From Chloroflexota bacterium (GTDB lineage Bacteria; Chloroflexota; UBA11872), in assembly GCA_034422315.1 (NCBI GenBank), contig DAOUJT010000176.1, positions 3,075-67,074 of the forward strand: DNA of 64,000 nucleotides. The letters run 5' to 3'. Below the pieces are notes generated by a model that saw only the letters and a program-made list of their open reading frames with translations, had not been told where the DNA came from and did not search any database. The position numbers and the translations under genes are program-made. Below are positions 29,404 to 48,876 of the stretch, piece by piece. Every line of letters begins with the position of its first letter. Positions within the stretch are counted from its first letter, which is position 1.

Positions 29404-29585
29404 ATGCACGCAGTTCACGTCTGCTTAAGTAGGCGTTCATTTGCGGTTACGCCTTCGGCTTGCGTCGAAACAGTCGGTAGGGGCAGCGAGTCGGTATCAT
29501 TAATGCCCCCCGGCGCAGAGGTCAAGGCTCCCTAAACACCAGTAGGGGCACACCCAACTTCAACGAAGCAGCATGGATTGGGCGC

Positions 29586-33005: not shown

Positions 33006-35786
33006 TCAGGACGTATCGACCGACACCTGTCCTTGCAGCCCGAGATCGGTGAGCGCTTGCCGCAACTCCAACTGAAAGCCTTGGGCCAAGCCCGCATCGA
33101 CACTCACCGAGAACTCGACGCCCACGCTCAGGTCGTCCCCGGAACGCAGCTTCGGCAGGATTCGCGTGCCAAGCCGGTTCCACACCTCCGGCGGGACGGT
33201 TCCCCTGAGCCTCAGCGTCGCCTTCTGACCTGTCTCTATGGGAAGCACGACTTGGGTTTCGCCAGAATCCGGCACGTCAACCGGAGGGGTATCAGTGCTC
33301 GGGCTTGTTTGGTCTTCCGGCTGCACCGGCTTCGTGTCATCGGCTGTGGCGCAGAGTCGCTCTGCCTTGGCTTTGGTCAGCAGATAGACCCCGGACTCGA
33401 AGGCCACCTCGTCCTGACCTACCGGCTCTTTGAACCACACTCGTTCGTACTGACCGTTGCCCTTCTCTCCAGATGCCAACCCGAAGTCTCCGGCGGTTAC
33501 GAATTCGACGACTTTCCGCTGGAGGACCGCATCTGGGTCCATTAGTCGAGTCAACGATCCGTCCAAGAAGCTCTGACGTAGGCTGTTCAGCGGCCAAGCG
33601 CCCGTGTCCGCGAACGCAGGCGGCCAATGCCGGTCGATGTATCCCACGCCAACGGACTCGTTGAGCAGCGCACCCGATTTCAACGCGGCGATCACCCGAC
33701 CGCATAACGTCTCGTTGCCGCTCGAATGGCCTGCGCCGAGGTCGATCACCTTCAAGCCCTCCAGCGCTTGCCTGTCTCCCAACGCCGCAAAGCGGTACCC
33801 GGCCCACACCTCGTCCCTCGCCGCCTCCTCCGCATCCCTGACGCTGGTCTGCACCTCGGCTCGGTCAGCCCGGTCGAACTCAGCCCCCAGGATGCCCTGC
33901 GACACCTCCTGGGCCACCCGACGCCACGCGAGCCACAGCTCCACGCTCTCTCTCAGCTCGCGACCAGGCTTCCTGACGCACCAGACCAATGCTCCGGGAT
34001 AGAGCCTTGGGGAATCTCCTCGCTCCCTGGTCCATCGAACCACGCGTTCCGCAAGCTGACCGCTCCCCCGCCACTCCTCCGCGGGATCGAGGACGACCAT
34101 CGTCAACCGTGGCGAGTCCTGCACCGCATCGCCGTTCTCCGGGAAGTAAACCACCGGAACCGGTGCGCCCCGGGCGAACTCCTCCTGCACAACCCTGCGA
34201 ACTGCGGGCCTGATCTCTGTGTCCTCGTCAAGGGAGGCGCGCCGATCGCTGACGACCTTTCGCAGCGTCGCCTGATGGTGGATGCGGTAGCCGTCCGTGC
34301 CGACCCTCCGCAGGAAGAATGCGGACTGCTCCAAAGCCGTGGCCGCGTTGTCGATAGTGGTCGTCTCCACCTCCGGCTCGCCGAGGGCGAATCGCAACTC
34401 CGGCAGGTGGGCCACCTTGTCCACCTGTCCGCCGGACGACTCGAACAGGATGGCCGCGCCGACCCTGCGATGGATGCCGCGCAGCGCCTTCTTGGTGTCC
34501 GCGTCCAGGGTCCTGGCGTGGGACGTATCCCCAGCGACGTCCGCTTCGATGGCGGCGTCGAGCCGCTGCTCCCCCAACTGGCCGAGGACCACGGCCCGAA
34601 ACTCCGGCACGTGCAACGGGGCGGAGCCCAGGGTGATCAGCGGTTCATTCCGCGCTAGCCGGAACTGCTCGCGCGACGCCCAGGAAATCCATTGGGCGAG
34701 CATCGCTAGCGCGCCGCGCGTCTGCTGGAATTGCGCCAGCGCCCGCCACTTCCGCTGGAAAACGGAAAGCGTCGCCGGGTGGAACGGATAGCACGCCTCG
34801 AACCGGCGCCGCAGGAAGTCATGCGCCTTAGAGCCGGTGACGGCACTGTCCACGGCCGTCCACTCCGGGGGAAGACGCGCGCTTCGCTCGAAGCACCAGT
34901 CCGCGTGTATTCCTGCGATCCGTTGACGCACGCGTTTGCCGCCGAGGTCCTCAAACAGCCTTCGGCGCACCACCTCGCTGATTTCGGACTCGTCGTTCGC
35001 AATCAGGTCGCGGGCGACGCGGCGTACGATCTTGGTGATGCGGTCCTGCCACTCCTGGTCCCACGCGGTCATCTCGATCTGGCTGCGGGGCAGGCTGATC
35101 ACCGCCGCCGCATGGATCGCGCCCGTGACGGCAACGGTCAGATTCTGGAGGAAGGCGTGGAAGGGATCGGCCATGCCTCGGTGTCGGTTGACGAAGTTCA
35201 ACACCTCGTCGAACAGCAGCAACACCGGCGCGTTCGCCGCGGCGAACACCCTGGCCAGCGCCTCGGTTCCGGGCGGCGTCGTCTCGGCGGCGCTGCCTAG
35301 GGCGGAAACGCCGGCGTCTCCGGCCAGCTGCCGGGCCAGATCGATCCAGGGCGTCTCCCGTCCCGGTGCCGGGTCCCAGGCGTTGCCGACGAAGACGCCC
35401 ACGCGGGCGGCGGGAGCTTCAGGAACATTCACATCTTTCAGCAGGTCGCCCACGCCCGGAAGTGCGTCGGCATCCCGGCCGGCGTTGGCGAGGTGGTAGA
35501 GGGACGCGAGCGTGTGCGTCTTGCCGCCGCCGAACTGCGTGATCAGCGTCAGGACCGGCGCGGTGTTCTCCGTTCGGCCGGACAACCTCCGCAGGACCAT
35601 GCCGGAGTGCTCCGTCAGCGCGCGGGTGAAGCAGGTGCGCGAGAAGAACTGTGCCGGATCGCTGTAGTCCGGGGGCGCCGTTCCCGCCACGACCTGCTCC
35701 AGGGCAATAGCGAACTCGTCTGGGCTGAAGGACCGGCCCTCCCGGACCTCCTCGCGTAGCGTTACGACCTTGTACCAGGGTTGCAT
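33006..35786 (-). CDS. DUF499-like P-loop ATPase (ATPase component of a helicase-methylase-ATPase system)
   Basis: N-terminus 'MQPWYKVVTLREEV...FAIALEQVV', Walker A 'QFGGGKTHTL', Walker B 'VLLLFDEVLNF', and 'CYPFHPATLSVFQRKW'. 926 aa. Confidence 0.7.
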   Translation of the reverse strand: MQPWYKVVTLREEVREGRSFSPDEFAIALEQVVAGTAPPDYSDPAQFFSRTCFTRALTEHSGMVLRRLSGRTENTAPVLTLITQFGGGKTHTLASLYHLANAGRDADALPGVGDLLKDVNVPEAPAARVGVFVGNAWDPAPGRETPWIDLARQLAGDAGVSALGSAAETTPPGTEALARVFAAANAPVLLLFDEVLNFVNRHRGMADPFHAFLQNLTVAVTGAIHAAAVISLPRSQIEMTAWDQEWQDRITKIVRRVARDLIANDESEISEVVRRRLFEDLGGKRVRQRIAGIHADWCFERSARLPPEWTAVDSAVTGSKAHDFLRRRFEACYPFHPATLSVFQRKWRALAQFQQTRGALAMLAQWISWASREQFRLARNEPLITLGSAPLHVPEFRAVVLGQLGEQRLDAAIEADVAGDTSHARTLDADTKKALRGIHRRVGAAILFESSGGQVDKVAHLPELRFALGEPEVETTTIDNAATALEQSAFFLRRVGTDGYRIHHQATLRKVVSDRRASLDEDTEIRPAVRRVVQEEFARGAPVPVVYFPENGDAVQDSPRLTMVVLDPAEEWRGSGQLAERVVRWTRERGDSPRLYPGALVWCVRKPGRELRESVELWLAWRRVAQEVSQGILGAEFDRADRAEVQTSVRDAEEAARDEVWAGYRFAALGDRQALEGLKVIDLGAGHSSGNETLCGRVIAALKSGALLNESVGVGYIDRHWPPAFADTGAWPLNSLRQSFLDGSLTRLMDPDAVLQRKVVEFVTAGDFGLASGEKGNGQYERVWFKEPVGQDEVAFESGVYLLTKAKAERLCATADDTKPVQPEDQTSPSTDTPPVDVPDSGETQVVLPIETGQKATLRLRGTVPPEVWNRLGTRILPKLRSGDDLSVGVEFSVSVDAGLAQGFQLELRQALTDLGLQGQVSVDTS

Positions 35787-35811
35787 CGGGAAGACTCCAA
35801 ACTGCTGATGC

Positions 35812-36168
35812 TCAGAATTTCGGTGGATGCGATATCCGGATTCGCCCGCCGCGTACGGTTAGGACAGCCCGCTCCTCCAGCGCCTTACCGTGATCCTCGA
35901 TTACCGCTCGAACGGTTTCGATTCGCTGTGACACGCGAACATCGGGCAGGCGAATCAGTCCTGCATGAGAAACCCGCTGCAGGTAGATGAGTTCGCCGAA
36001 GTCCTTGTCCAGCGTGACGAGAACCCGGTTCTCCGCTCCCGCTCGTTCCAGCAAAGCCCTGTCGCCTGGATCCGGGCCAAGTGTCTGTGCTTCAACAACG
36101 TCGTGTCCGTTGTCACGCAACCACTCCGCCAACCGTCGCCCAGCGCATCGGTCGGTGAGGAATCTCAC
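35812..36168 (-). CDS. DUF5615/Mut7-C-like PIN-fold putative toxin
   Basis: 'MRFLTDRCAGRRLAEWLRDNGHDVV...LVTLDKDFGELIY'. GTG start overlaps the upstream stop (GTGA). Confidence 0.6.
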   Translation of the reverse strand: MRFLTDRCAGRRLAEWLRDNGHDVVEAQTLGPDPGDRALLERAGAENRVLVTLDKDFGELIYLQRVSHAGLIRLPDVRVSQRIETVRAVIEDHGKALEERAVLTVRGGRIRISHPPKF

Positions 36169-36416
36169 CGTGCCGCGACGGAAACCGGCGCCAGCGTGTC
36201 GCCCGATATCACGGTGTGGGCGTAGGCGATACAGGCGCGGATGTCCTCCGGTTCCAGTTCGGGGTAGTCATCCAGGAGTTCATCCTGGGTGGCGCCCTGG
36301 CTCAGCAGGCTCAACACAAGCTCGACCGAAATCCGCATGTCTCGGATGATCGGCTTTCCGCCAAAGACATCAGGCCGCGCGGTGATGCGGTTGAGGAGTT
36401 TATGGTTCGTCGTCAT
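36165..36416 (-). CDS. DUF433-like putative antitoxin
   Basis: 'ITARPDVFGGKPIIRDMRISVELVLSLLSQGATQDELLDDYPELEPEDIRACIAYA'. Internal ATG of track ORF 36165..36476. Confidence 0.65.
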   Translation of the reverse strand: MTTNHKLLNRITARPDVFGGKPIIRDMRISVELVLSLLSQGATQDELLDDYPELEPEDIRACIAYAHTVISGDTLAPVSVAAR

Positions 36417-36447
36417 CACTTCCCTCCGTAGTTCGTGGATTCGTCGA

Positions 36448-39432
36448 TTACCTCGGCGCCGCCAATAGCATGGCATCCAGCAGCCGCTTTTCCTCGCTTC
36501 CCCGTGGGTAGAGTGCGGTCAGGGCGTTGGCGAGGCGCAAGAAGTCTGGGCCGCGCTCCTGCTCGGCGCGTAGCAGGTTGCGCAGGGCCTGGCTGCGACC
36601 CGACGCCTGGAGCAGCATGGCGGCGTGCACCCGGTCCAGCGTGGTCGCCGAGAGCCTAAGCTCTGCATTGCCGCTGGTCAGCATCGATGACCTGCTCCGC
36701 CTCCGCGCTCGTCCCCGGACGGCGGGCGGCTCATCGGGAAAGAGGCTCAACTGCGGAGATACGTTCGCTGCCGCCTCCATCTCGTCGGCTACGGCGGCGG
36801 CGCCCGACTCGCCGAACAGTTGCTTCCCGCGCTCAGTGACAGGGAGCATGCACACTACACCCCTCTTCGTCTCGATGATGCGCGATTCCCAGTCGTCGAG
36901 GTGGATGCCCAGCGGCTGGGCGAACCGCCGCGCCACGTCAAAGGGCAGGCTGTAGCCGGACGACTTCCTGCGCGGCGCTTCGTCCTCTTCGTCGTTGGGG
37001 GTGGCACAGTCTTCTGAGAACACGCCTTCCGACGTGCTCTGCAAAGTCCAGAGGAACAGCGCGGTGAGGCGGGCGTCTTCCTCCAGCGCCCCTGCCGCGC
37101 CGTTGCGGGCCTGCGCCTCCGCCGTACCCAGCACCTGCTCCAACGCCTCGCGGCCTACCACCTCCCACACTCTCTCCAGGTACTCCGGCAGGCTCACCTC
37201 GCGGCCCTCAGCCGTCTCCACGGCGCGATAGCGACTGTAGATCTCCAGTGCCGGGCCGACGCAGGCGAACACCAGGTCCGCGCCCCGGATGCCTTCGCCT
37301 TGGAGCCGCTGCATCCAGTCTGCGACGCGGCCTGGTAATTCGTACAGCACGTCGGCCCAATCGCCGACCGGCGCATCCTCTGGTCGCGGGCGGCAGATGA
37401 GGTGGACACTAGTGGCAAGGGCAGCGGAGGCTTGAGAGCGCAGGCGGCCTGGTCTTTCGGTGGCAACAGGCCAAGAGCCGGTAATGGTCCAGCCGCCTCG
37501 GATCAAGCCAGAAAGCAAAGCCTCCCAACCCTCGGTGGTCTTGTGAGCGAAGACGACCGAGCCCACGCCGTCCTGGCTGAGGATACGGCGACCTTCGGCG
37601 AAGGCCTTCGCCATCGTTTCCTCAAACCAAGCTTGGCTCTTGGGCATATTGTTGGAATGTTTGGTTTCATCTTGCACGATCTCGGGAATCTTGGGGGAGA
37701 GTGAACCGCTCGGATCAAATGGGTCTCTCAGCAACGAGTGATCAGGCAAGGCGCGCTTAAGCCACACAAGAAAGAAGTCCGAGAGTTCTGCGTACGGAAC
37801 CGCATCGTAATATGGTGGGTCGGTGAACCAAACGCTAGCGCTCTGGTCAGGTAAGGGATGATCTACTGCATCTGCTTGCTGTACTTGACCGTGTGTGCCA
37901 GAGAACTTCCTAACGAATCTGATCCCGTAGCCAATTGCACCTTCAAGAGATCCTGTTGAATTACCCGTCGGACACGTCTCACAGAAATCCCAAACCATTG
38001 GAAGGGCTTGTCGTCCGAAGGTCGCGGCAGATGATTCTCTCGGTCCAGCCCAACGAGATAAGGCGGAGTTGAAATCCGCCATTTTGGATAGCGTTAGGCA
38101 AAGTCCACCAACAATCTCACTGTCTACTCGAGTGTTCCGAATTAACGTGCTCAGCGCCATCAATGCCACTTTCTGCCGCGCGGTGAACAGATCGCCCCAA
38201 TGGAGCATCCCGTACCGTTGGACGCTGAACGCGCGGCCGGCCCCTGAACCTCCTCCTGCGGGAGTCGGCTCATCCGGCACGGGACATAACCCCGGTCTTC
38301 CGCCACGCTCCCACTCGTCCAACATCGCCGTGACGCGCTCTTGCGCCCCACGGATGACCACATAGTCCGCATCGACTGGCAGGCGGTAGTGGCGCCCCCT
38401 TTCGCTAGGCTTGAGGGTCACGACCGCCGTCATGCGCGCTCCGCCTGCGCGGTTGCCATGTTCGTCGAACACCACGTCCGCCCCGCCTCTCTGCGCGGCA
38501 AGCTGGGAGCGCACCCGGTCCGGCGGCAGGACGGCCCCGCAGCAAACGCATGTAGCCCTGGCCCTTGTCACGGTCCCAGTGGCGACCTCGCTATCGGACT
38601 CCGGCTCAATAATCTTGAACTCCACGCGAGGAGTGCTGTCATCGCGCACCACGTCGGAGCGCAGCGCCCACTTGCGGTTGGGCTTCCGGCACAGCCACAT
38701 GGAACGCATCAGGGGTATCTCCGCGCCGCAGTCGGGAGCCTCGCAGCGCACTGTCCGCGCCCATAGATAGGCGATCGGTGTTGCGCCGTCCGGGTCTTTG
38801 GGATATAGGTCGGCCAGTTCGTTCTCTGCCTTGGCCTTGACCTCCGCGCCCACCTTGCGCAGATCGTCAGCCAGACCCGGCCCGCGCCTGGGAATGTCCT
38901 CCAGCATCACCTTGAGGATCAGGCAGGCCACGGGGTTGAGGTCGCTGGCGAAGGCCTCGCAGCCCAACCGCAGGGCCTCCAAGGGAATCGAGCCGCCGCC
39001 CGCGAAGGGATCCACTACTGGGAGCATCTCCTCCGGATGGGCGGCCTTCACGAGGTCGCGCCCGATCTCCAGGTACTCCGCCTTGGCCGCGTTGTCCCAG
39101 TTGGCGAAGTCGGCGATGAACCGGAGCAATACGCGCCGCAGCCCTTCGTCAGCCTTCACATGCTCGTCCCACGCGCCGGGACGGGTCCGCATCGCCAACA
39201 GTATTTCCCGCGCACGCGCCTTGAACGCCGGCGGGCAGTGCTCGTCGCACGGATCGGGTAGCAACAGCGCCATGAGCACGGCCCGCGACGACGCCAGCGG
39301 CCGCCGCGCCCACCACAGATGCAACGTCGAAGGATGCCCATGCCGAATCGACTTTTCCCGCGCCGCGTGCCGCGAGACCTCCGCAATAGGAAAGTCGACT
39401 TCCGCTAGGCGCTTGCAAGACACAGGGATCAT
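36448..39432 (-). CDS. DUF1156-type DNA methyltransferase
   Basis: 'AAREKSIRHGHPSTLHLWWARRPLASSRAVL' is the DUF1156 signature as I recall it. Motif I 'VVDPFAGGGSIPLEALRLG', motif IV 'WFTDPPYYD'. The start is set at ATG 39432 (track ORF extended to 39582). Confidence 0.75.
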   Translation of the reverse strand: MIPVSCKRLAEVDFPIAEVSRHAAREKSIRHGHPSTLHLWWARRPLASSRAVLMALLLPDPCDEHCPPAFKARAREILLAMRTRPGAWDEHVKADEGLRRVLLRFIADFANWDNAAKAEYLEIGRDLVKAAHPEEMLPVVDPFAGGGSIPLEALRLGCEAFASDLNPVACLILKVMLEDIPRRGPGLADDLRKVGAEVKAKAENELADLYPKDPDGATPIAYLWARTVRCEAPDCGAEIPLMRSMWLCRKPNRKWALRSDVVRDDSTPRVEFKIIEPESDSEVATGTVTRARATCVCCGAVLPPDRVRSQLAAQRGGADVVFDEHGNRAGGARMTAVVTLKPSERGRHYRLPVDADYVVIRGAQERVTAMLDEWERGGRPGLCPVPDEPTPAGGGSGAGRAFSVQRYGMLHWGDLFTARQKVALMALSTLIRNTRVDSEIVGGLCLTLSKMADFNSALSRWAGPRESSAATFGRQALPMVWDFCETCPTGNSTGSLEGAIGYGIRFVRKFSGTHGQVQQADAVDHPLPDQSASVWFTDPPYYDAVPYAELSDFFLVWLKRALPDHSLLRDPFDPSGSLSPKIPEIVQDETKHSNNMPKSQAWFEETMAKAFAEGRRILSQDGVGSVVFAHKTTEGWEALLSGLIRGGWTITGSWPVATERPGRLRSQASAALATSVHLICRPRPEDAPVGDWADVLYELPGRVADWMQRLQGEGIRGADLVFACVGPALEIYSRYRAVETAEGREVSLPEYLERVWEVVGREALEQVLGTAEAQARNGAAGALEEDARLTALFLWTLQSTSEGVFSEDCATPNDEEDEAPRRKSSGYSLPFDVARRFAQPLGIHLDDWESRIIETKRGVVCMLPVTERGKQLFGESGAAAVADEMEAAANVSPQLSLFPDEPPAVRGRARRRSRSSMLTSGNAELRLSATTLDRVHAAMLLQASGRSQALRNLLRAEQERGPDFLRLANALTALYPRGSEEKRLLDAMLLAAPR

Positions 39433-39484
39433 CTGGCCGTATCCAGCGTTATTACCCAAATACTCACCGCTGTTCTCAGCATCT

Positions 39485-41224
39485 TCATGCTCTATTTTGC
39501 CTACGCATGTTCTCCACCGCCTTCTCGAAATTCGGTGGCGACGGTTTTCGCGACCACTCGTCCCAGAATTCAATAGTCGCACTTAGCGGCTTCTCACATG
39601 GTTTGCGAATGCGAATTCGGCTCGGAAGGAGTACGGCATCACCAACCACAAGCGCCTCACCGATGTCGAGAATCGGAAGTGTATCCATCAGTCCTTCGAG
39701 GCTCTCCGGCATCAAGCGCCGCACTGTTGCCTGGTCATCGCTATTGGTGAGTCGCAAAGACATGACGTTATGACACTGGCTCAGTATCGTCGCACTTACA
39801 TCCGATGGTCGTTGGCTAACTACAAACAGTGCTACTCCGTATTTTCTCCCCTCTTTGGCAATCTTCTCAAAATTCTCGATTGCGCGTTGTTCGACCGGGT
39901 TTGCCCCTTCCTTGTGGGATAGATAAACGTGGGCCTCATCACATACAAGAGCCATTGGTGTCCGGCTCTCACGATCCGTCCAGAATTGCACTTGGTAAAT
40001 GATTCGCGCCACAAGTCCGACTATTGCAGGAAGGATCTCAGCCGGAACTTCAGAGAAGTCAATGACCTTGATCTGTGATCCATCGGTGGAGTAGTCCATA
40101 AGCTGACTAACGATAGCTGCCATCGCACTGTAATTGTGTGAATTGCACGGAGCCTGAAATAAGAAACCATACCTCTTGTCCGTTAGTCTACTGTTGAGTC
40201 GAACAAGCAATCGACTGAATTGGCCATGGAATGGTCCATTCCTCTCTCCCCCTCTTGCTCCTGGTACCCGCTCCTCGTTTAGGCGCCTCAACTCTTTCAT
40301 TACTTCATTGATGGAAAAAGGGACTGGACTGTCCAAGGTGAAAGCGCTCAAGACTTCCATCTTATCTAGTTCTTCTAACTGCCTTCTCTTTTCGGCTATC
40401 ACCGCGTCCTGGAACGCCATCACTTGGTTGTGTGCGCTGAACTCACTTCGGTCTATGAACATTGCCTGGAGCTCCTCGGCATTAAGCAACCAGTAGGGCA
40501 GGAATAAAAGTGAATTGTTAGCCTGTCCAAGCTCCTCCGGGCCTGGCACTCGAAGATGACGGGCGTATGATAGCTCTCCATATTCACCGTGAAGGTCGAA
40601 CACGATCATGTTCGTCGACGGAAGGCGCGCGGATTGCTCCAAAATTGCAGCCACGCACCACGACTTTCCAGACCCAGTACTCCCAAGTAACGAAGCATGG
40701 CGTTGAAAGAACTTGTTTCCATCCAAGTAGGCGGTCGCATTTTCATCGATGGTGTACCGACCGACTTCGAGCGACTCGGATCCCTTTCCTTCGTCAGAAA
40801 GCAATGCCATAAACGTCTGCAACGGAGCGTCCCTGAGAACAAGACAGTTTCCATCGATCTCAGGCACCTGGATCAGCGAACGCGAAAACTCCGGCGTGTT
40901 TTCAAGTGAGAGGCCTACGGTTCCTACCAAAGTGACTCGAACAGTATTCAAGACCGCCTCGCGCTGGACCATGACGCTTGCTGCCTCAAGATCTTCATCG
41001 AGCTCCGAGTCCGTGAGATCTTCAAGCACCGGCGTCTTCACCACCCGATCAATAACACCTATCAGCCATTCCTCAATTGGGCCAGGCAATTCAATTGCCA
41101 CTAGCTGACCAACCCGGGCCTTCCGAAGATCTTCATCGCTGTTAACCTGAACGTCGACTCTTCGAGTGTCGACAGCACGGATGTTCCCGAGCGTGTGCGA
41201 TGTATCGAAAGAAAAAACAGCCAT
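39485..41224 (-). CDS. herA: HerA-like (DUF87/FtsK-HerA superfamily) ATPase of a SIR2-HerA pair
   Basis: Walker A 'LLGSTGSGKSW', Walker B 'MALVCDEAHVY', 'VALFVVSQRPSDV'. AGGAGG sits upstream and the ATG is 1 nt after the SIR2 stop. Confidence 0.75.
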   Translation of the reverse strand: MAVFSFDTSHTLGNIRAVDTRRVDVQVNSDEDLRKARVGQLVAIELPGPIEEWLIGVIDRVVKTPVLEDLTDSELDEDLEAASVMVQREAVLNTVRVTLVGTVGLSLENTPEFSRSLIQVPEIDGNCLVLRDAPLQTFMALLSDEGKGSESLEVGRYTIDENATAYLDGNKFFQRHASLLGSTGSGKSWCVAAILEQSARLPSTNMIVFDLHGEYGELSYARHLRVPGPEELGQANNSLLFLPYWLLNAEELQAMFIDRSEFSAHNQVMAFQDAVIAEKRRQLEELDKMEVLSAFTLDSPVPFSINEVMKELRRLNEERVPGARGGERNGPFHGQFSRLLVRLNSRLTDKRYGFLFQAPCNSHNYSAMAAIVSQLMDYSTDGSQIKVIDFSEVPAEILPAIVGLVARIIYQVQFWTDRESRTPMALVCDEAHVYLSHKEGANPVEQRAIENFEKIAKEGRKYGVALFVVSQRPSDVSATILSQCHNVMSLRLTNSDDQATVRRLMPESLEGLMDTLPILDIGEALVVGDAVLLPSRIRIRKPCEKPLSATIEFWDEWSRKPSPPNFEKAVENMRRQNRA

Positions 41225-41225
41225 G

Positions 41226-42344
41226 TCAGCCTCCTAGGATTTCCGTAGTGAAGGTAGCGATGTCCCAAAGTCGCTTGTCGGGAAGAATTAGCCAGTCCGC
41301 ATATTGTCTATTGAATATGCGTGTCCCGTTCTCGCCGTCTCCTGAAGCCTTGCATACAAGCCAGAGGTTCTCGGACCGCCGAAGCAAGGACTCAATCCGA
41401 ACGTTCAAGTCTCTAGTGACGATAACTCCCTTGCAGGAGTTCTCAGCGAGCTTGCGATTGATGTAGGCTTCAAGATGACTATCATTGAAACCATAGCCAA
41501 GAAAGAAGAACCTATTTGCCTGGTCGATCGCCTCATCAGCAGAAGTCAACAATTCGCGTCTGTAGTTCTGCAAAGTCTGAAACTTTGAAAGGCCAGGAGT
41601 GATCATAACGCGGCTCGTGAAGTCTGGTGCATCCCACATCCAAGCGTTATTCTCTACGACGGTGTTGTTGTGAAAAAATAGATTCAGTGATCCGTGAACC
41701 TTGTATAGCCGGATGTGCTTACGATCTTTCGTGACACTACGTATTCGTCGACGCTGCGTCACTCTGCGTGTATATTGCATGGAGCGAATTGCTCTAGGCC
41801 AATCTATAGTACGATGTATACCTCCACAAAATCCCGTTGTATACTGTATGGAGTGGGCATCGCAACTATGCTCAAATAGCGTGTCATAGTTTGGTGTTAA
41901 GACGTGCAGAGCGCTGTCGGATGAAGGGAGCGTTTCTACTAAGCGCTTAAAGAATACCATCGCAGGCCACTCAACTTCACCCTGATATACTTGCAGTGCG
42001 AACTTTCGATCGAGTCCAGAGATGAAATTAGCAGTGGCAGACGTGATAGTATGCACCAACTGAGGATCGGTCACGTGATCGAGTGCTGTCTCAAGGTCGT
42101 TTCCGCTATTCAGAGATTCCAAAGCTTCGTTCCACTGCATGCTTTGCTGGTGATTGTAAGAATCGACGATGACAGACCCTTTAAGTTCACTTGTGAGCGC
42201 CGGCATACCGAAGCGTGAGTCGACGGCACAGGACATACCAGTTCCGAAGAAGACAAATGGCTTGTCGCGAAAAAAGGCGCGTATGGCAGTCTTGGAAATA
42301 TCTTCGGTGAGAGGAGGTAATCCTGTGATCGCGCTACTAATCAT
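41226..42344 (-). CDS. SIR2-like protein of a SIR2-HerA pair
   Basis: 'FVFFGTGMS', 'VLTPNYDTLFE', 'LYKVHGSLN', 'FFFLGYGFND'. Low GC (43-50% in hand-counted lines). Confidence 0.75.
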   Translation of the reverse strand: MISSAITGLPPLTEDISKTAIRAFFRDKPFVFFGTGMSCAVDSRFGMPALTSELKGSVIVDSYNHQQSMQWNEALESLNSGNDLETALDHVTDPQLVHTITSATANFISGLDRKFALQVYQGEVEWPAMVFFKRLVETLPSSDSALHVLTPNYDTLFEHSCDAHSIQYTTGFCGGIHRTIDWPRAIRSMQYTRRVTQRRRIRSVTKDRKHIRLYKVHGSLNLFFHNNTVVENNAWMWDAPDFTSRVMITPGLSKFQTLQNYRRELLTSADEAIDQANRFFFLGYGFNDSHLEAYINRKLAENSCKGVIVTRDLNVRIESLLRRSENLWLVCKASGDGENGTRIFNRQYADWLILPDKRLWDIATFTTEILGG

Positions 42345-42564
42345 TTAGGGTTAGATATCGTGCTTCGGGCTCTCGGAATACCGTTGACTGAGCCAAGGCG
42401 TTGACATCCGGCGAAGCGAGTTGGACCTTGTGCACCTCATGCCTCAGGCGATGCGCGGGATCTTCTGCTGGCTCCTCTAACCGTCGATCGGCGGCCCAGT
42501 TTGGTGACGCTGTAGAGACAGGAGCAGTCGCGACGGTCTCCGGCTATCGGGCACTCGTCGGAGA

Positions 42565-42957
42565 TCATAGGCGCTTGTCCACCCATTGCACCACTGCTTC
42601 CGCCATGCGTATGGCGTCGGCGTACGCTTGCTCGGAAACCGGTGGGGCCGCGGAGGGATAGCGAGACGCCCACGCGTAGTCCGAGAGGACTTCAGCCCGG
42701 CGCACCTCTTCCGGGATGGCGTCTCCCGTCTCTTCCAATAGCGAGAGCAGACGGCCCAGGTCATGCGTGTAGGGAAACTCGACGCCCTGGCCTATGAACA
42801 CCGCCTTGAGAGCCTTCTCTGCCGCCTGCTGAGCGTCAAAGCAGAGGTCCTCCAGATAGTCACCAGGGGCGCGGCGTTTGGCTCGCGCAAGGTTGCCTTT
42901 GGCCCGGCCCATCCACTCCCGCGGGTCGTCGGGCGGGAAGCGTTCAGGCTGCGTCAT
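42565..42957 (-). CDS. HEPN-domain protein (HEPN-MNT type TA partner)
   Basis: 'AKGNLARAKRR...DLCFDAQQAAEKALKAVFI...YTHDLGRLL...ASRYP'. It overlaps the MNT gene by 14 nt. Confidence 0.65.
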   Translation of the reverse strand: MTQPERFPPDDPREWMGRAKGNLARAKRRAPGDYLEDLCFDAQQAAEKALKAVFIGQGVEFPYTHDLGRLLSLLEETGDAIPEEVRRAEVLSDYAWASRYPSAAPPVSEQAYADAIRMAEAVVQWVDKRL

Positions 42958-43288
42958 ACACCACGCGACCCTCTCGCAGCGCGGGCTTATACACCAGCGG
43001 ATGGCTGTCCTTGTACCGCTCGATGTTCTCGGGGGTTGCGACGACAAGGTCCACGGCCGCATTCGTGCCTCGCAGCGCCCGGCGTATTTTGCCGGAGAGG
43101 CCCCAGTGATCGGCGCCCGACTTGACGACCAGGATGTCTAGGTCGCTGTGCGGTCCCATCTCGCCGCGCGCGGCAGACCCGAAGAGGATGATCCGCTCCG
43201 GCTGTGCGATCTCGACGATGCGCTGGACAATCTCCTCAATGTCGCCCGTGGTGACGTTGGTATTGCCCATCGAGGTCTTGTCCATCAT
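42944..43288 (-). CDS. Minimal nucleotidyltransferase (MNT)
   Basis: 'ILFGSAARGEMGPHSDLDILVV'. Its ATG overlaps the helicase stop (ATGA at 43288-43285). Confidence 0.7.
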   Translation of the reverse strand: MMDKTSMGNTNVTTGDIEEIVQRIVEIAQPERIILFGSAARGEMGPHSDLDILVVKSGADHWGLSGKIRRALRGTNAAVDLVVATPENIERYKDSHPLVYKPALREGRVVYDAA

Positions 43289-46200
43289 CCACCGCCCGCT
43301 CGGTATTCTGCCGGCTCCTCCCGAACCATCATTGGCTGGGTCATGGCATCCACTTCCAGCCAATAGTGCTGCACCTTGGTGACCTCGTGCCACGGGAAGC
43401 GCGCGGGGTCCTCAATGGGTTCCTGCAGCTGCGGCTCGGTGGCGCAATTGGTGACAACGTAGAGCCAGTAGCAGTCGCGGCGGTCCTCGGCCACGCGCCG
43501 CTCGTTGGGCGTTAGTAGGATCGTGCCCGTCTCGGCGGCTAGGCCTTTCACCTCTATCAGACGTAGCTGGCCGGACTGCACGTCGAGGCTGGTCACGTCG
43601 TAGCCGAGGTTTTTCTCGTGCACGTCGAAGACTTGGCGTCCCAGGGCTTCTTCGTACTCCATGACCACCCGCATGGCGGTCATCTCAGTTTCCGGGTTGG
43701 GACGCAGCCGCTGCACTTCGGGGGTCTCGCGTTCCGGGTGGGGCAGGATCAGGACGCTTGCAAGTCGCTCGACGCCCTGAAGGGTGAGCGCCCGCTGCTG
43801 GGTCAGCTCGCGTCGCCGCCGTTCCCGCCGGGCCATCGCTTCGCCATGCCGGGCATCCGCCTGCGCAAGTCGCCCCTCGGCGCCCATGATCTGCTGCTCC
43901 ACATCCTCCGAGGCGCGGCCGATCTCCTGGTCGATACGTTGAAGCACCTCGGTCAGCGATAGCTCCACGTGCTCGGCGATGCGGTCGATTTCGGTCACTC
44001 GTTCGGCCTTGACTTCGTCAATGAAGGGAGTGAGTGCGTGCTCGTTCAGCCAGTCGGTCGCCTCGGGGAGTGCCGTGACAGAGGGCGGGTCGTCAGGACC
44101 CACGTCGGCCGGGCTCAGATTGCCCACGATGTCCGGCTCGCGGAGATGAGGAAGGGCGCCATCGGCGAGCTCGACGGCGAACAGCCGCTCGTGGATGACG
44201 TGCCCCAGCCCGTCCACGACGCGGGCGCGGTAGAAGTCGAGCCGCGCCGGCGTTTCGTGGTCGAGCGAATGGAAGCAGGCGCCCTTGGCAAATGCGTCTT
44301 GGCCGATCTCGAGACAGTGACGCCGCAGAGCTTCGAACAGCGGATGACCCGGCGTGACCCACTCCAGGCTGTGCTGCTCCGCCGTGTCCCGGTCCGTCGA
44401 GAGACGGGGGTAGCGAGTGACGAGGTCGGGGAGGCTCCAGTCCGGCTCCCGTTCGTATCGCCGCAGCGCCGGGGGCGTCCGACCCGGCTGGAGCGTGTGG
44501 GACAGGCGGTACACCGGATCCAGGGTCAACCCGGCGTCCCGTGCGCTTGCGGTCATGAAGCGCGCAATCGTCTCAGGCACGACCCGACGTTCCTGGGCGC
44601 GAGCGCGGCGCTCCACGAGCATTTCAAGATTGAGCTTCTTGGCGGCGAGGCCCTCCAACGCGGTCTGGCAGATCTCTCGAAAGCGTCCTTCGTCCACGTG
44701 CCGCAGCAGGCGATCCTCCAGGTCTGCCTCTTCCAACTTCCCTGCGTAGAAGTCCCGGAAAACGCGGTCTATCTGCGCGGCGGGCAGCACCTCGCCTACC
44801 ACGTTGAACACGGCATCGTCGTCCAGTGCGTCCCGAATCTCCTGGAGCTTTCCTAACAACCGCTGGAGCACGTGCCCTTCGATGGTGTTGGCGGCGACGA
44901 AGTTGAAGATGAGGCAGTCGAAACGCTGGCCGTAGCGGTGGATGCGGCCCATGCGCTGCTCCAACCGGTTGGGGTTCCAGGGGATGTCGTAGTTGAAGAG
45001 GATGTGGCAGCACTGGAGGTTGATGCCCTCGCCGGCTGCCTCAGTCGCCACCAACACCTGGATGGCACCGTCCCGGAACTGCTGCTCGACGTAGAGGCGG
45101 GAACCCGGCTCATCCCGCGAGCCGGGCCTCATACCACCGTGGATGGAGCCTACGCGGAAGCCCCAGGACGTCAGCCTCTCCACCAGATGATCGAGGGTAT
45201 CCCTGAACTCGGTGAAGATGAGCAGCCGCTGGTCGGGGTCGTCGAAGAATCCCTGCTCCCGAATGATCTCGTTGAGGCGGGTGAGCTTGGCCTCGTCACC
45301 CGATGCTTCGATGGCTGCGGCTTGTGCCGCGAGTTGTCGGAGTTCGGCAACCTCCCTGCGGACCTCATCGGCGTTCCCGGCGAGCGTGACGGCCTCCAGC
45401 AACCGCTCCAGGCGCTCACGCTCGGTGTCCTCCAACTCGTCCAGGTCCTCCCAGTCGGGGAGGTCCGGCGGCGCCGTCCGCGCAAGGACCTCGGCTTGCT
45501 TGAGGCCCTCTTCCAAGCGATTGGCCCGGTTCTCCAGCGAGCGGCGCATGGCATGGGCGCTGGAGGCGAGGCGGCGCTGGTAGAGGGACATGAGGAAGCC
45601 GACCGCGCGGGCGCGAGGGTCGTCGCCCTGGGCTGCGGCGCGGGCGCTCTGACGTTTCACGAACCGCGTAATCGCTTGGTACAACTCGAACTCAGCGCCG
45701 TCCATGGTGAAGCCGGCCGTGTGCGTGATGCGCTTAGTAAACACGGGCTTGGCTGCCCATACGCCGTCCGGCTGGCGCTCCGGGAAGTAGACCATCGCCT
45801 CCTTGGTGCGGCGCAGGTAGAACGGCGCCCGCCTGCGCTCCATCGCCTTGCGGATGGACTTCACGTCGGCGTAGGCGTCCTGGTCCAAAAGCTGGAGGAA
45901 GAGGGTGAAGTTTTGCGGGTCGCCCTTGTGCGGCGTGGCGGTCAGCAACAGCAGGTTGTCGGCGCTGTCCCGCAGCATCTCGCCGAGACGGTAGCGCTGG
46001 CTCTTATGTGTCTCGTCTCGCGCCGACATGCGGTGGGCTTCGTCGACGATGACCAGGTCCCAGCGCACCTGCCGCAGACCGGGAAGGATGTCGTCCCGCT
46101 TGGCGAGGTCAAGTGACGTGATGACCTGCCGCTGTTCGAGCCATTGGTTGATGCCGAACTGGTCTCGTATGTCGCTGCCCTTCAGGACGAAGAACCGCTC

Positions 46201-46746
46201 GTCGAACTTCTCCCGGAGCTCGCGTTGCCACTGAAAGGCCAGGTTCGCTGGGCACACCACCAGCACTCGTTCGGCTAGGCCCCGCAGCTTGAGTTCCCGG
46301 ATGAGCAGGCCGGCCATGATGGTCTTGCCGGCGCCTGCGTCATCGGCGAGCAGGAACCGCACGCTGGGGAGCTTGAGCAGGTAGTCGTAGACGGCCTCCA
46401 ACTGGTGGGGCAACGGGTCGACCCGGGAAATGGAGAGGCCGAAGTACGGGTCGAACTCGTGGGCGATACCGAGGGCGTACGCTTGGAGGCCAAGTCGCAG
46501 GAGCCGTCCGTCGCCATCGTAGGAAAGGGTGGGATCGGCGATGGTGAGGCTGGCGATGTCGGCCGACGTCAGGGTCACGCGACGGAATCGCTCCGTGCGC
46601 TGACCGACCAGACCCGCTTCCACGGAGCCGATTCCGTTCGTCCGAACGGTTTCCACCCGCATCGGCTCACTGAACTGCGGGCCAGTCAGCACCTGGCCTT
46701 CACGGATCACGACTTCAGTGCTCACCTCGGTTTGACCCTCCACCAC
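43285..46746 (-). CDS. SNF2-family helicase with a C-terminal DUF3883-like PD-(D/E)xK nuclease domain
   Basis: 'LLADDAGAGKT', 'DLVIVDEAHRM', 'LLLTATPHKG', 'QRMGRIHRYGQ'. C-terminus 'GYDVTSLD...LRLIEVKG...CYWLYVV'. Confidence 0.8.
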   Translation of the reverse strand: MVEGQTEVSTEVVIREGQVLTGPQFSEPMRVETVRTNGIGSVEAGLVGQRTERFRRVTLTSADIASLTIADPTLSYDGDGRLLRLGLQAYALGIAHEFDPYFGLSISRVDPLPHQLEAVYDYLLKLPSVRFLLADDAGAGKTIMAGLLIRELKLRGLAERVLVVCPANLAFQWQRELREKFDERFFVLKGSDIRDQFGINQWLEQRQVITSLDLAKRDDILPGLRQVRWDLVIVDEAHRMSARDETHKSQRYRLGEMLRDSADNLLLLTATPHKGDPQNFTLFLQLLDQDAYADVKSIRKAMERRRAPFYLRRTKEAMVYFPERQPDGVWAAKPVFTKRITHTAGFTMDGAEFELYQAITRFVKRQSARAAAQGDDPRARAVGFLMSLYQRRLASSAHAMRRSLENRANRLEEGLKQAEVLARTAPPDLPDWEDLDELEDTERERLERLLEAVTLAGNADEVRREVAELRQLAAQAAAIEASGDEAKLTRLNEIIREQGFFDDPDQRLLIFTEFRDTLDHLVERLTSWGFRVGSIHGGMRPGSRDEPGSRLYVEQQFRDGAIQVLVATEAAGEGINLQCCHILFNYDIPWNPNRLEQRMGRIHRYGQRFDCLIFNFVAANTIEGHVLQRLLGKLQEIRDALDDDAVFNVVGEVLPAAQIDRVFRDFYAGKLEEADLEDRLLRHVDEGRFREICQTALEGLAAKKLNLEMLVERRARAQERRVVPETIARFMTASARDAGLTLDPVYRLSHTLQPGRTPPALRRYEREPDWSLPDLVTRYPRLSTDRDTAEQHSLEWVTPGHPLFEALRRHCLEIGQDAFAKGACFHSLDHETPARLDFYRARVVDGLGHVIHERLFAVELADGALPHLREPDIVGNLSPADVGPDDPPSVTALPEATDWLNEHALTPFIDEVKAERVTEIDRIAEHVELSLTEVLQRIDQEIGRASEDVEQQIMGAEGRLAQADARHGEAMARRERRRRELTQQRALTLQGVERLASVLILPHPERETPEVQRLRPNPETEMTAMRVVMEYEEALGRQVFDVHEKNLGYDVTSLDVQSGQLRLIEVKGLAAETGTILLTPNERRVAEDRRDCYWLYVVTNCATEPQLQEPIEDPARFPWHEVTKVQHYWLEVDAMTQPMMVREEPAEYRAGGG

Positions 46747-46812
46747 CGAGTAGGAACCATCGGACCTCAGAGGACACCCATCAACTCAAAGATGGTACGG
46801 CTTACCGTCAAA

Positions 46813-47379
46813 CTAGGCCCACCCAGGTTTCCGCTGCCACGCAGTCTTCGGTGCGTTGTCCATAACCCGGTCGCCGGGTTTGAAGATCAGCTGCGCGCAG
46901 CGATCGCTCAACACCACCCGCAGCGACTCACGCTGGCCGCGTAAACACCTCTGGTGGGCCGATACGGCGGGTGCGGGCTCCAGCCCATGCCCGCGAAGTC
47001 CAAGCCTCGCTCCCGCCAACGGCGCGAGTCTGAATCCCGTATCCGACGGCTCCGCTCGACCGCTCGGGACTGACACGAGGTTCTTTCGGACGAGCTGTTC
47101 ATCGCTGCGATCAAACCCAGTCGTCGCACTGCGAGAGGGGACGCTAGGGCCAACTCCGTCGGGCACTTCTAGGGGCTGTTCCCAGCCCTCGCTCCAGGGG
47201 TCCTCGGTCCGCGAACTGCGATGTGGTACCGAGTCGTAGTCGTCGGGATCCGGCACGTCGTCGGCGGTCAGAATGGTGAGCACTCGTCCGTACGAGCCAA
47301 GTCCAATGGCTTCTTCTCGAAGCGCGAACGTGGTGGAGGCGGGACCTCTCGCCCTGTTGCACCAACGGATTCTGTCCAC
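46813..47379 (-). CDS. Hypothetical protein upstream of the helicase (possible accessory gene)
   Basis: 188-aa ORF on the same strand, 66 nt upstream of the helicase, with a GTG start right after an in-frame stop. No motif recognised. Confidence 0.35.
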   Translation of the reverse strand: MDRIRWCNRARGPASTTFALREEAIGLGSYGRVLTILTADDVPDPDDYDSVPHRSSRTEDPWSEGWEQPLEVPDGVGPSVPSRSATTGFDRSDEQLVRKNLVSVPSGRAEPSDTGFRLAPLAGARLGLRGHGLEPAPAVSAHQRCLRGQRESLRVVLSDRCAQLIFKPGDRVMDNAPKTAWQRKPGWA

Positions 47380-47605
47380 TGTCTAGCCTCATGTCTTGTC
47401 GTCTGGCGCATGGGGTACGAGGACTTGAAGAATGGGCGGCGAAAAGAAATACGACCGCGACGACCGCAGCGTCTCAGAAAAGGAAAAGGAAGAAGGAAAC
47501 GACGACGCAAGAAAAGATTAGAGTGAAGCCTTGAATAGCTTCCTGACGGCGATCCTGCATACACTGCCGGACGAACTCCCACCAATACCAGAATAAGAGG
47601 AATAG

Positions 47606-47630
47606 AGGGCGGGCCGAAATGGCCCGCCCT
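47606..47630. terminator. Bidirectional GC-rich hairpin terminator
   Basis: AGGGCGGGCC-gaaat-GGCCCGCCCT, followed by TTTTCTC on the plus strand. It lies 9 nt beyond the stop of 47639..48043 on the minus strand. Confidence 0.75.
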
Positions 47631-47638
47631 TTTCTCAC

Positions 47639-48043
47639 CTACCAAAGAGTTTCACCCATTAGTTCTTCATATTGCTTATGCAGCTTGTCGATTTCATTTC
47701 GCAGTTTTTCCTTCTGTTGGACAATCGCAGACAACTTAGTATCTCGAATCTCAGCTTGGGCACGGATTATTTTCAAATACCCTTCATCAAACATAGGTGG
47801 TGATCGAAATGTTCTCGCAAGATAAAGCCGCTGCTGTTCAAGTTTTTTCCACTGATCTTGAACATCACATAGCTCTTGCTGAAGATCGCTAAGCTCTTGA
47901 ACTTTATCTGCGATGCCAAGTTCGAGGCTGAGTTCAATATTGGAAACGCTATGAATGAAATCTGTGAGAGTGGTGTCGATGTTCGACAAACTCTTACGTA
48001 CTCCAACTAGATTTCGTCCCAAGTAATCGCCACCCGCATTCAT
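47639..48043 (-). CDS. Coiled-coil hypothetical protein (134 aa), low GC
   Basis: ATG at 48043 is preceded by GGAGG 7 nt upstream. Heptad-like 'VQELSDLQQELCDVQDQWKKLEQQ...KEKLRNEIDKLHKQYEEL'. A terminator follows. Confidence 0.6.
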   Translation of the reverse strand: MNAGGDYLGRNLVGVRKSLSNIDTTLTDFIHSVSNIELSLELGIADKVQELSDLQQELCDVQDQWKKLEQQRLYLARTFRSPPMFDEGYLKIIRAQAEIRDTKLSAIVQQKEKLRNEIDKLHKQYEELMGETLW

Positions 48044-48128
48044 TGCAGCCTCCGGTGTATCTTTCAGCACGTTTCGCATGAGAATCCACGATCCCACGAA
48101 TATACAATAACAAACCGTGCTATGGTTA

Positions 48129-48827
48129 TCACCGCACCGTAGCTGCCATGCGTAGTGCAATACGCGCCTTTCCCCATGTGCCACAAGGCCGGGGCATGGC
48201 AGCTAGGGTCCGGTACCAACCCAAAAGCAGTGGGACTGTGCGAATCCCGCTGTAGGGGCTGCGTAGGCGCTCGCTGCGGCTCACTGGCGGCCTGAACCGC
48301 ATCGGCCTGTTGTGAGAGAAAGGCCCACAGTCTCCGCGAGTGACCGTCAATGAGCTGCAGGGACCGAGCGCCCGCAAGGGGCCGCTGAGAAAATCGTGGT
48401 GCATCAGAGTAGGAGTTGTCGTGGAGTCCCTGGGAAACCCCGAGTCGGATCGGCAATTCACCGCAACCCGGTGCGCGCGCTGCACCTTCTGTGGGTTCGA
48501 ATTCAGCCACAGGGTCGCTGAGCTTGGTACTGGGTCGCCGGGTCGCATCGGGATGCGTCCAATGCCGGGCACGTTGCCCAGTGCTTTGGAAACCCAGCAA
48601 TAGCGTACGGCGCGATTTTGACTCACGACGGCTGCAACGGGTTCGGAACTCAGCTTTGCGAATCGGATGGCCGTACTCGTAAGCGAGATCTCAAACTCAT
48701 CGGCTATCTCCCTTACGTCGTCTAGTCCGGGCGTGCGACGGTCGAGCGCTGTGATAAACGGGTCGCGGGGCATCAGCAGTTCGGCGGCGAAGTGATCAGC
48801 TTCCAACTCGTGCCATCGAAAGGTAAA
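48129..48827 (-). pseudogene. 5'-truncated ImmA/IrrE-family metallopeptidase remnant
   Basis: It begins at 'HELEADHFAAELLMPRDPF' (the family's second conserved block). The HExxH block is missing, and the reading frame is closed by a stop at 48828-48830 directly beside the next gene's terminator. Confidence 0.6.
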
Positions 48828-48831
48828 TCAA

Positions 48832-48861
48832 AGGCCCGCCCCTATTGTTTGGGGCGGGCCT
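48832..48861 (-). terminator. Rho-independent-type terminator of the small RG-tail gene
   Basis: AGGCCCGCCCC-8 nt-GGGGCGGGCCT, 15 nt after the 48877 stop. On the minus strand it is followed by TTGATTTACCTTT. Confidence 0.75.
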
Positions 48862-48876
48862 CCTAAAATAGAAGGA

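Follow-up and report, generated by a model that had tools for sequence, protein, structure and literature searches.

Defence operons built from a helicase, a methylase and an ATPase gene were named 'Hma' in the PADLOC paper (Payne et al. 2021, PMC8565338). Such operons can hold other genes between their own. In a preprint by Payne et al. (bioRxiv 10.1101/2024.01.29.577857), embedded genes were found in 931 of 1,485 Hma systems (62.7%), and about 23% of the embedded genes came from known defence systems. The census allowed at most three embedded genes per hma junction. The same authors used the embedding to discover HEC-01 to HEC-09, reported that Hma systems are seldom near other defence systems, and offered the idea of a 'genomic sink'; recombination is never mentioned there. 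In Liu et al. 2024 (PMC11232893), about 66.5% of hma loci had insertions, and the region was termed an insertion hotspot. In that study, the NOV_C domain of a Halomonas HmaA was a Mn2+-dependent nickase and was needed for anti-T4 defence. The trio was later reclassified as a Type-1 DUF499-centred BREX-related (BR) system (Nucleic Acids Research, NAR, 2026, PMC12839542). In the restriction-modification-like model proposed there, self DNA is marked by the methylase, scanning is assigned to the DUF499 ATPase and restriction to the helicase-nuclease. HEPN, Schlafen and PIN nucleases are regarded as 'backup effectors' in or near BR loci, and HEPN-MNT is among the BR-associated nucleases. Here, we describe an Hma locus of a Chloroflexota bacterium. 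It lies on the minus strand of a stretch of 64,000 nucleotides, hereafter the window (assembly GCA_034422315.1, contig DAOUJT010000176.1, positions 3,075 to 67,074), and three further two-gene modules are placed between its hmaA, hmaB and hmaC genes. We consider it quite probable that the locus is a Type-1 'BREX-related' Hma operon of restriction-modification-like type with cargo slots at both intergenic junctions, and that one of the modules, SIR2-HerA, was gained from another Hma operon.

The embedded modules also resemble described units. SIR2-HerA is reportedly an anti-phage system, in work attributed to Gao 2020, Garb 2022, Tang 2023 and Shen 2023. The COG2442-COG4634 pair (DUF433/DUF5615) is said to have been predicted as a type II toxin-antitoxin pair by Makarova et al. 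in 2009. The main texts of Payne 2024 and Liu 2024 do not mention SIR2-HerA, DUF433-DUF5615 or MNT-HEPN as Hma cargo. The supplementary files of the Payne preprint that were searched contain no SIR2, DUF433 or HEPN term. Neither paper describes the route by which cassettes enter or any stubs of hma gene ends, and the words 'recombination' and 'remnant' are absent from both.

Nine intact co-directional open reading frames (ORFs) occupy 33006-46746 of the minus strand, in the transcription order hmaA-MNT-HEPN-SIR2-HerA-hmaB-DUF433-DUF5615-hmaC. A first-pass annotation, made from the sequence without database searches, had proposed nine same-strand genes in these places. The ORF coordinates agree with it, and an independent gene caller reproduced eight of the nine genes on the public scaffold (ENA ERZ23495174, scaffold_1074); the GTG-started DUF5615 gene alone was missed. 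The hmaA gene (43285-46746) matched PADLOC HmaA at 3e-171 over residues 16-1099 and the Pfam domains SNF2-rel_dom (3e-17), Helicase_C (5e-24) and NOV_C (9e-22). Its product is an SNF2-family helicase with a C-terminal NOV_C (formerly DUF3883) PD-(D/E)xK nuclease and has the motifs GAGKT, DEAH and D-x-EVK. The hmaB gene (36448-39432; DUF1156 5e-22, PADLOC HmaB 1e-117) encodes a DUF1156-type N6-adenine methyltransferase in which FAGGG (motif I) and DPPY (motif IV) were found. The product of hmaC (33006-35786; PADLOC HmaC 4e-88 over residues 1-833, Pfam DUF499 5e-12) is a DUF499 AAA+ ATPase with the motifs GGGKT and LLLFDE and without an N-terminal HEPN fusion. The three genes are single-copy, stand on one strand of the same locus, and none is a pseudogene. 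HmaA, HmaB and HmaC were the best PADLOC models for the trio, which bears out the name 'Hma' (PMC8565338) that the first-pass annotation had tentatively given; the DUF499, DUF1156 and NOV_C domains that it expected were all recovered by the profile searches.

The core has the same three proteins, the same domain architecture and the same A-B-C order on one strand as Type-1 BR systems. The C-terminal PD-(D/E)xK nuclease, present in 79% of those systems (PMC12839542), is also present in the window HmaA. HEPN is fused to HmaC in more than half of the taxa (PMC12839542), whereas the window HmaC is the 'canonical' unfused form. The mechanism of the trio had been described beforehand as not experimentally established. 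This still holds for HmaB and HmaC; for HmaA it does not, given the nickase and anti-T4 results (PMC11232893). Within hmaB, about 330 nt (37833-38161) have no DNA match in any close relative, and the flanks of this segment are 84-90% identical to the closest one. From this pattern, the segment is probably the target-recognition region and was probably swapped. Embedding in Hma is a published phenomenon, and the locus itself is ordinary, if unusually well-loaded. Four genes lie between hmaA and hmaB, one more than the census of Payne et al. allows per junction, and the locus would therefore be left out of that census; this reflects a detection rule, not biology.

The junctions are tight. The MNT start lies over the hmaA stop (ATGA), MNT and HEPN overlap by 14 nt, HEPN and SIR2 are 220 nt apart, and SIR2 and HerA 1 nt. 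HerA is followed after 52 nt by hmaB, hmaB after 31 nt by DUF433, DUF433 overlaps DUF5615 (GTGA), and DUF5615 ends 25 nt before hmaC. Apart from the MNT/HEPN overlap, which it did not list, all of these spacings had been read correctly in the first-pass annotation. Co-orientation and tight junctions would let all nine genes share operon transcription. The identities proposed for the three embedded modules were also in agreement with the Pfam and PADLOC matches. The three modules differ in their history: SIR2-HerA is a compositionally foreign addition, and the other two have long been resident. GC content at third codon positions (GC3) is 0.83 in hmaA, 0.81 in hmaC, 0.75 in hmaB and 0.72-0.74 in MNT and HEPN, and it is 0.52-0.54 in SIR2 and HerA. 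The total GC of SIR2 is 0.48 and that of HerA 0.51 (about 50% for the pair) against about 65% in the core.

GTDB species genomes were scanned with HmaB, and the nine window proteins were mapped onto the 80 loci obtained (designated by L numbers). The 22 complete loci with an HmaB identity of at least 60%, mostly from Dehalococcoidia and other Chloroflexota metagenome-assembled genomes (MAGs), were taken as close relatives. None of the 22 is free of cargo: at least one of the two junctions is occupied in each, by genes that vary between loci. This supports the 'landing pad' alternative of the first-pass annotation. The A-B junction is without cargo in L007 and L021, and the B-C junction in L008. 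The cargo includes HEC-01A/B AAA_21 ATPases, Schlafen-AlbA_2/HATPase_c_4, Ppl-like and RES-domain proteins, NsnB/HEC-03-like ATPases with a small partner (PIN), OLD/Gabija-like proteins, AbiL/PDC-M38, PDC-S02 (DUF1016), PDC-S19, a NucC-like nuclease and a UvrD/GajB-like helicase. As in the published Hma-embedded systems, cassettes in the window are co-oriented between hma genes, and the relatives carry the published HEC-01A/B, HEC-03-like, Schlafen-like and OLD/Gabija-like cargo. The closest relative is L002, with 96% amino acid identity in HmaA and 94% in HmaC. At the DNA level it is 93% identical over a tract that opens 600 bp upstream of hmaA and breaks off at window position 43303, 18 nt short of the hmaA stop. 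Identity resumes 15 nt into hmaB at 84% and is 90% from the hmaB 3' end through DUF433 and DUF5615 to the hmaC stop. The A-B slot of L002 holds a 1.96-kb UvrD/GajB-like gene in place of the 4.1-kb block of the window. Since the core is near-identical and the slot content is different, the cargo was swapped with breakpoints at the core-gene borders.

The MNT gene (42944-43288) matched NTP_transf_2 at 7e-10 and has a GSx10DLD motif (GSAARGEMGPHSDLD). The adjoining HEPN gene (42565-42957) matched PF05168 at 5e-28 and encodes 130 amino acids. The module had thus been recognised correctly as HEPN and MNT after the helicase; its order had been reversed, as MNT comes first and HEPN follows. Like MntA-HepT-type pairs, it is composed of a GSx10DxD MNT and then an overlapping HEPN. 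Unlike them, the PF05168 HEPN lacks R-x4-6-H. No match to this strict RNase motif (R.{4,6}H) was obtained across the 130-residue protein; the toxin activity of HEPN is therefore uncertain, and the pair is named MNT-HEPN rather than a proven RNase toxin. MNT homologues are present in the hmaA-hmaB interval of 9/22 close relatives, eight of them with HEPN too and L029 with MNT alone. The HEPN stop overlaps the hmaB start (ATGA) in L010, L012, L013, L014, L016 and L025.

At the other junction, the antitoxin-like DUF433 gene (36165-36416; Pfam DUF433 1e-23) is followed by the overlapping PIN-like DUF5615 gene (35812-36168; DUF5615 4e-18, Mut7-C 3e-6, PIN_10 2e-5). This is the same overlapping order, antitoxin-like then PIN-like, as in the predicted toxin-antitoxin pair; here it is a conserved fixture upstream of hmaC. 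By tblastn, 17 of the 22 close relatives had a match to DUF433 and 14 a match to DUF5615. DUF5615 is directly upstream of hmaC, at a distance of 14-90 nt, in 13 of these 14. The identities of DUF433 and DUF5615 parallel those of the core genes: they are 98% and 97% in L002 (HmaA 96%) and both 84% in L004. Two allelic classes of DUF5615 occur among the relatives, with identities of 64-97% or about 35%. Compact seven-gene operons, hmaA-MNT-HEPN-hmaB-DUF433-DUF5615-hmaC, are present in L013, L016 and L025. From this distribution we read MNT-HEPN and DUF433-DUF5615 as long-term residents of this Hma clade, unlike the variable cargo. The resident state would be hmaA-[slot]-MNT-HEPN-hmaB-[slot]-DUF433-DUF5615-hmaC, with the pairs lying against hmaB and hmaC and co-inherited with them.

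SIR2-HerA has a different history. The SIR2 gene (41226-42344; PADLOC SIR2 4e-144) has the motifs GTGMS and HGS and is predicted to encode a SIR2-like NADase. The HerA (DUF87) ATPase gene (39485-41224; PADLOC HerA 3e-221) has Walker A GSTGSGKS and Walker B DEAH. The two genes are neighbours with intact catalytic and Walker motifs. As in the known system, they form a two-gene unit with SIR2 first, a 1-nt gap and full-length PADLOC matches. When the window was aligned with the compact L016 and L025, it was continuous over 46717..42559 and resumed at 39432, where hmaB starts. This leaves exactly 42558..39433 (3,126 bp) as DNA specific to the window, placed at the overlap of the HEPN stop and the hmaB start and with the hexamer ATGATC at both ends. 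A search for repeats around the insert yielded no terminal inverted repeats and no boundary direct repeats longer than about 10 nt. SIR2-HerA is absent from all 22 close Hma relatives.

The 220-nt interval between HEPN and SIR2 had appeared in the first-pass annotation as a gap of that length. The length is correct; the interval is not an empty spacer. It holds a relic (42345-42564) of a second hmaA gene, the donor's, from which approximately the last 75 codons at the 3' end survive with one frameshift. A tblastn search with the HmaA C-terminus gave 12/26 and 22/49 identities in two frames, collinear within this interval. At the DNA level, the relic shares 69-72% identity with the 3' ends of hmaA genes along 134-182 nt, and its z-score relative to 500 shuffles is 20-24. 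When aligned to L084, it is contiguous with SIR2-HerA, and its counterpart there is the hmaA end directly before SIR2-HerA-hmaB. Because an hmaA 3' relic leads the cassette, SIR2-HerA probably originated in an Hma operon with the order hmaA-SIR2-HerA-hmaB. An hmaB 5' remnant was considered for the 18 nt following the HEPN stop (ATGATCTCCGACGAGTGC, 'MISDEC') and was rejected by tblastn and DNA alignments, which place all but roughly the first 6 nt in the hmaA 3' relic. At the right end, the 52-nt HerA-hmaB spacer (39433-39484) is the same in L082 and L086 and travels with the cassette. No conserved element was found in HerA-hmaB spacers beyond this spacer common to the window, L082 and L086.

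The eight nearest HerA relatives (78-93% identical; L082-L089, L083 being the L082 contig from a second source) were looked up, and all eight SIR2-HerA units are flanked by hma genes or hma stubs. L086 has SIR2-HerA, the same 52-nt spacer and hmaB. The order is hmaA-SIR2-HerA-hmaB-...-hmaC in L084 and hmaA-SIR2-HerA-hmaB-(ATPase gene fragment)-hmaC in L087. In L085, hmaA-SIR2-HerA is followed by an hmaB 5' stub of 495 nt, an hmaA 3' stub of ~160 nt, GmrSD/Schlafen, hmaB and hmaC. L088 carries stubs of hmaB (amino acids 1-88) and hmaA (amino acids 1106-1148) ahead of SIR2-HerA-hmaB, in which hmaB is interrupted by an insertion sequence (IS). L082 (8204-11917) consists of an hmaA stub, MNT, a truncated HEPN, SIR2-HerA and an hmaB stub; L089 (6053-10094) consists of an hmaA stub, SIR2-HerA and a collapsed hmaB relic. 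Both are without the Hma core and lie among metabolic genes. It seems that the cargo outlives or escapes its carrier operon, as in these two loci. A metagenome scan with HerA gave 80 further loci (HerA 61-79% identical). Among them, hma genes or stubs adjoin only the nearest sub-clade (L090-L094, L100, L105 and L120, the last with an hmaB stub ahead of SIR2), and in about 70 of the 80 the available DNA shows neither hma genes nor hma stubs beside SIR2-HerA. The order hmaA-SIR2-HerA-hmaB is found in L084, L085, L087, L093 and L105, some of them on long-read chromosome-scale contigs. Judged by gene neighbourhood, there is an Hma-embedded lineage of SIR2-HerA, next to hmaB. The window copy is in this sub-clade, immediately upstream of hmaB inside Hma operons, unlike most of the distant loci. 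The GC of SIR2-HerA is 49-51% wherever computed (the window and L082-L089), in hosts of 0.53-0.68 and even in copies about 18% diverged. Either amelioration is prevented, or turnover is faster than amelioration.

Gene-end fragments are not confined to the SIR2-HerA lineage. The loci were scanned systematically for hma gene-end fragments, with locus maps, and further scars turned up between stacked cassettes. L008 has the order hmaA, an MNT fragment (amino acids 4-56), Schlafen, a 57-nt hmaA stub and then MNT-HEPN; the stub is 100% identical to the hmaA tail of its own locus. In L014, hmaB is followed by a gene of no assigned family, an hmaB 3' stub and DUF433. L010 holds an hmaC 5' stub within its B-C cargo, L015 and L063 have hmaA stubs, and L057 has an hmaB 5' stub. 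As a side observation, three separate Hma loci (L068, L079 and L080) are present on one alphaproteobacterial chromosome (MAG OZ241350.1) and are possible partners for intragenomic exchange.

These observations can be joined into a working scheme. HmaB would methylate host DNA, the HmaC DUF499 ATPase would sense or scan DNA, and the HmaA helicase-nickase, of which the activity is demonstrated for a homologue, would attack unmodified invader DNA. The A-B and B-C junctions would act as two cargo slots. SIR2-HerA, with a function assigned by family membership alone, would be an independent NAD+-depletion layer, and it would have arrived from an hmaA-SIR2-HerA-hmaB operon with about 220 nt of the donor hmaA tail. 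Cargo would be exchanged and stacked between Hma operons via recombination in the conserved hma gene ends. By one route, a double homologous crossover would replace a cassette. By the other, one homologous and one illegitimate join would stack a cassette and leave hmaA and hmaB stubs behind. Homology-facilitated illegitimate recombination has reportedly been described by de Vries and Wackernagel in 2002. Defence hotspots flanked by core genes, with flank-mediated cassette exchange, occur in Vibrio and Pseudomonas. The present case shares with them the conserved bounds, the variable cargo, the breakpoints in the flanks and the stacking with a duplicated flank piece. It differs in that the flanks are genes of a defence system and the carrier operon stays intact and functional. 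In its general form, we propose that hma gene ends serve as portable homology arms, and that cassettes including the Hma-specialised SIR2-HerA spread and stack by recombination with stubs as scars, making the operon an integrase-free exchange platform. For this general proposal we see about as much reason to believe as to doubt.

Another reading takes the embedded modules as functional Hma accessories, namely backup or abortive-infection effectors or regulators which are co-regulated with the core and act once Hma is inhibited. PrrC inside EcoprrI is an analogue, and for BREX-related systems this is the 'auxiliary/backup effector' model. We regard it as possible in a tentative sense. The fixed positions of MNT-HEPN and DUF433-DUF5615 against hmaB and hmaC in many relatives, their co-varying identity and the start/stop codon overlaps at the resident-pair junctions fit it, and a whole SIR2-HerA sub-clade adjoins hmaB. 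In addition, the HmaC of this clade is without the HEPN fusion seen in many Type-1 BR systems, so a stand-alone HEPN could substitute for the fused one. On the other hand, the same slots hold highly diverse and freely replaced cargo (HEC-01, Schlafen-like, RES, PDC-S02 and others), or none at A-B in L007 and L021 and at B-C in L008, and the HEPN protein is without a strict R-x4-6-H. SIR2-HerA in particular persists without the Hma core in L082 and L089 and is autonomous elsewhere, as about 70 of the 80 metagenome loci have no flanking hma in the DNA available. The regulatory wiring of the modules had been the second alternative of the first-pass annotation; the sole regulatory element found is of the capH/capP type and lies upstream of the operon.

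Chance juxtaposition in a defence island, the 'genomic sink' in which hma sequences play no special role, is unlikely in our opinion. The idea comes from Payne et al. themselves. The entire region of about 27.5-52 kb has a lower GC (0.53-0.66) than its flanks and the window in general (about 0.73), and the same island holds a lone SIR2-like gene, a broken capP and other low-GC inserts. Against this, the insertions are at gene boundaries, co-oriented and with all three core ORFs preserved, duplicated stubs of hma gene ends recur at the borders of the cassettes, all eight nearest SIR2-HerA relatives are tied to hma genes or stubs, and, according to Payne et al., an Hma system does not usually have other defence systems nearby. 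Insertion of SIR2-HerA by a dedicated mobile element such as a transposon, an integrase or an integron-like cassette is very improbable. Taken as a target-site duplication, the ATGATC hexamers would fit it, and mobile elements lie near some related loci: L088 contains a DDE transposase as well as an IS inside hmaB, and an integrase is located some 9 kb upstream in L085. However, ATGATC is the conserved hmaB start, no transposase, integrase or terminal inverted repeat is in or next to the 3.1-kb insert, and the insert opens with an hmaA fragment, which is not expected of a self-mobile cassette. The source is a metagenome scaffold with a sharp GC drop, from about 0.65 to 0.50 within 3 kb, which could also be produced by a chimeric assembly. 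This is hardly credible: the HerA-52 nt-hmaB joint recurs in the independent assemblies L086 and L082, the hmaA-SIR2-HerA-hmaB order recurs in the five loci given above including long-read chromosome-scale contigs, the left joint is a decayed hmaA relic with no abrupt break, and SIR2-HerA has about 50% GC in all hosts examined.

Several observations weigh against the gain of SIR2-HerA from another Hma operon and against the operon scheme as a whole. No donor locus was identified. The relic is ~70% identical to the window's own hmaA tail and equally to hmaA tails elsewhere, and it could conceivably be an old internal duplication. The hmaB 5' region was considered as a donor tract and rejected, for it is closest to L002 (92%, 87%) and not to the hmaB of SIR2-HerA-bearing loci; no long donor tract is visible, and the homologous crossover on the right side is thus inferred. 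L082 shares the composite block of MNT, truncated HEPN and SIR2-HerA at only 82-83% DNA identity (17-18% divergence), and therefore the insertion is not recent. Despite this age, the insert GC (50%) has not drifted towards the host GC. A promoter and terminator scan of 32.5-48 kb found no excess over shuffled sequence (4 vs 3.4 and 10 vs 10.9) and so speaks neither for nor against internal promoters or a single transcript. In the single published test of HmaB, its over-expression left the T4 sensitivity to HmaA unchanged (PMC11232893).

Upstream of the operon, a capP-like (M78/IrrE peptidase) pseudogene occupies 47150-48818 of the minus strand (capP 6e-25). Its two pieces, 48417-48818 and 47150-47340, correspond in the L002 protein to residues 117-250 and 247-310. 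Both capH and the 5' half of capP are absent; there is no intact HTH (helix-turn-helix) repressor with an M78 peptidase here. In L002, an intact capH (XRE-type HTH) and capP (M78 peptidase, HEXXH) are directly upstream of hmaA. Among the Hma relatives, L002 alone has the pair ahead of hmaA, and capH/capP is therefore a local feature and not a general Hma regulator. The window operon may have lost a CapH/CapP-type damage-responsive repressor. The array had been drawn to 47379 in the first-pass annotation. It ends at 46746, and the ORF at 46813-47379 is partly the 3' remnant of the broken capP, so that there is no tenth array gene. A 1.08-kb low-GC insert (47341-48416) splits capP. It contains a 181-amino-acid coiled-coil ORF (47639-48184) with a weak LmuB-like match (E about 1e-3) and, after this ORF, a GC-rich hairpin at ~47605-47630; a similar small ORF and hairpin are found at 48830-49098. 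Further upstream, the minus-strand ORF 51974-57397 encodes 1807 amino acids with leucine-rich-repeat-like and fibronectin-III-like regions read by eye from the translation. The only call of the tRNA scan, an 88-nt tRNA-Ile given by ARAGORN at 52690-52777 of the plus strand, is within this large ORF, is doubtful and probably a false positive. Because it is the sole call, there is no tRNA-linked integration site. The Rfam scan of the entire window gave zero matches.

On the other side of the operon, three plus-strand genes of 53-57% GC (28378-32706) are convergent with hmaC, and two of them (341 and about 434-455 amino acids) are without a family match. The third (31447-32706) encodes a lone SIR2-like protein (PADLOC SIR2 2e-8; Pfam SIR2_2 2e-4, below the curated cut-off). 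The segment is possibly a further defence cassette. In L002, its place is taken by 1.6 kb of unrelated DNA; homology between the two loci ends just past hmaC and is regained about 5.4 kb later in the window. A helicase-like ORF (24077-27496, plus strand) lies next, with weak matches to ResIII and Helicase_C and to PADLOC ZorD and DpdE. Over its last ~700 nt it is 86% identical to DNA that lies downstream of the Hma locus in L002. The public ENA contig starts at window position 27000, within this ORF.

Modestly new here are the recombination scars, the lineage of SIR2-HerA embedded in Hma operons and the reading of MNT-HEPN and DUF433-DUF5615 as residents of this clade, although the journal version of the Payne preprint may say more. 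Embedded cargo may be under-counted, since loci with more than three genes per slot fall outside the rule of Payne et al. Near-identical carriers which differ in cargo, a fossil hmaA tail and matching scars together provide a testable mechanism for how Hma operons would gain, swap and stack their cassettes.

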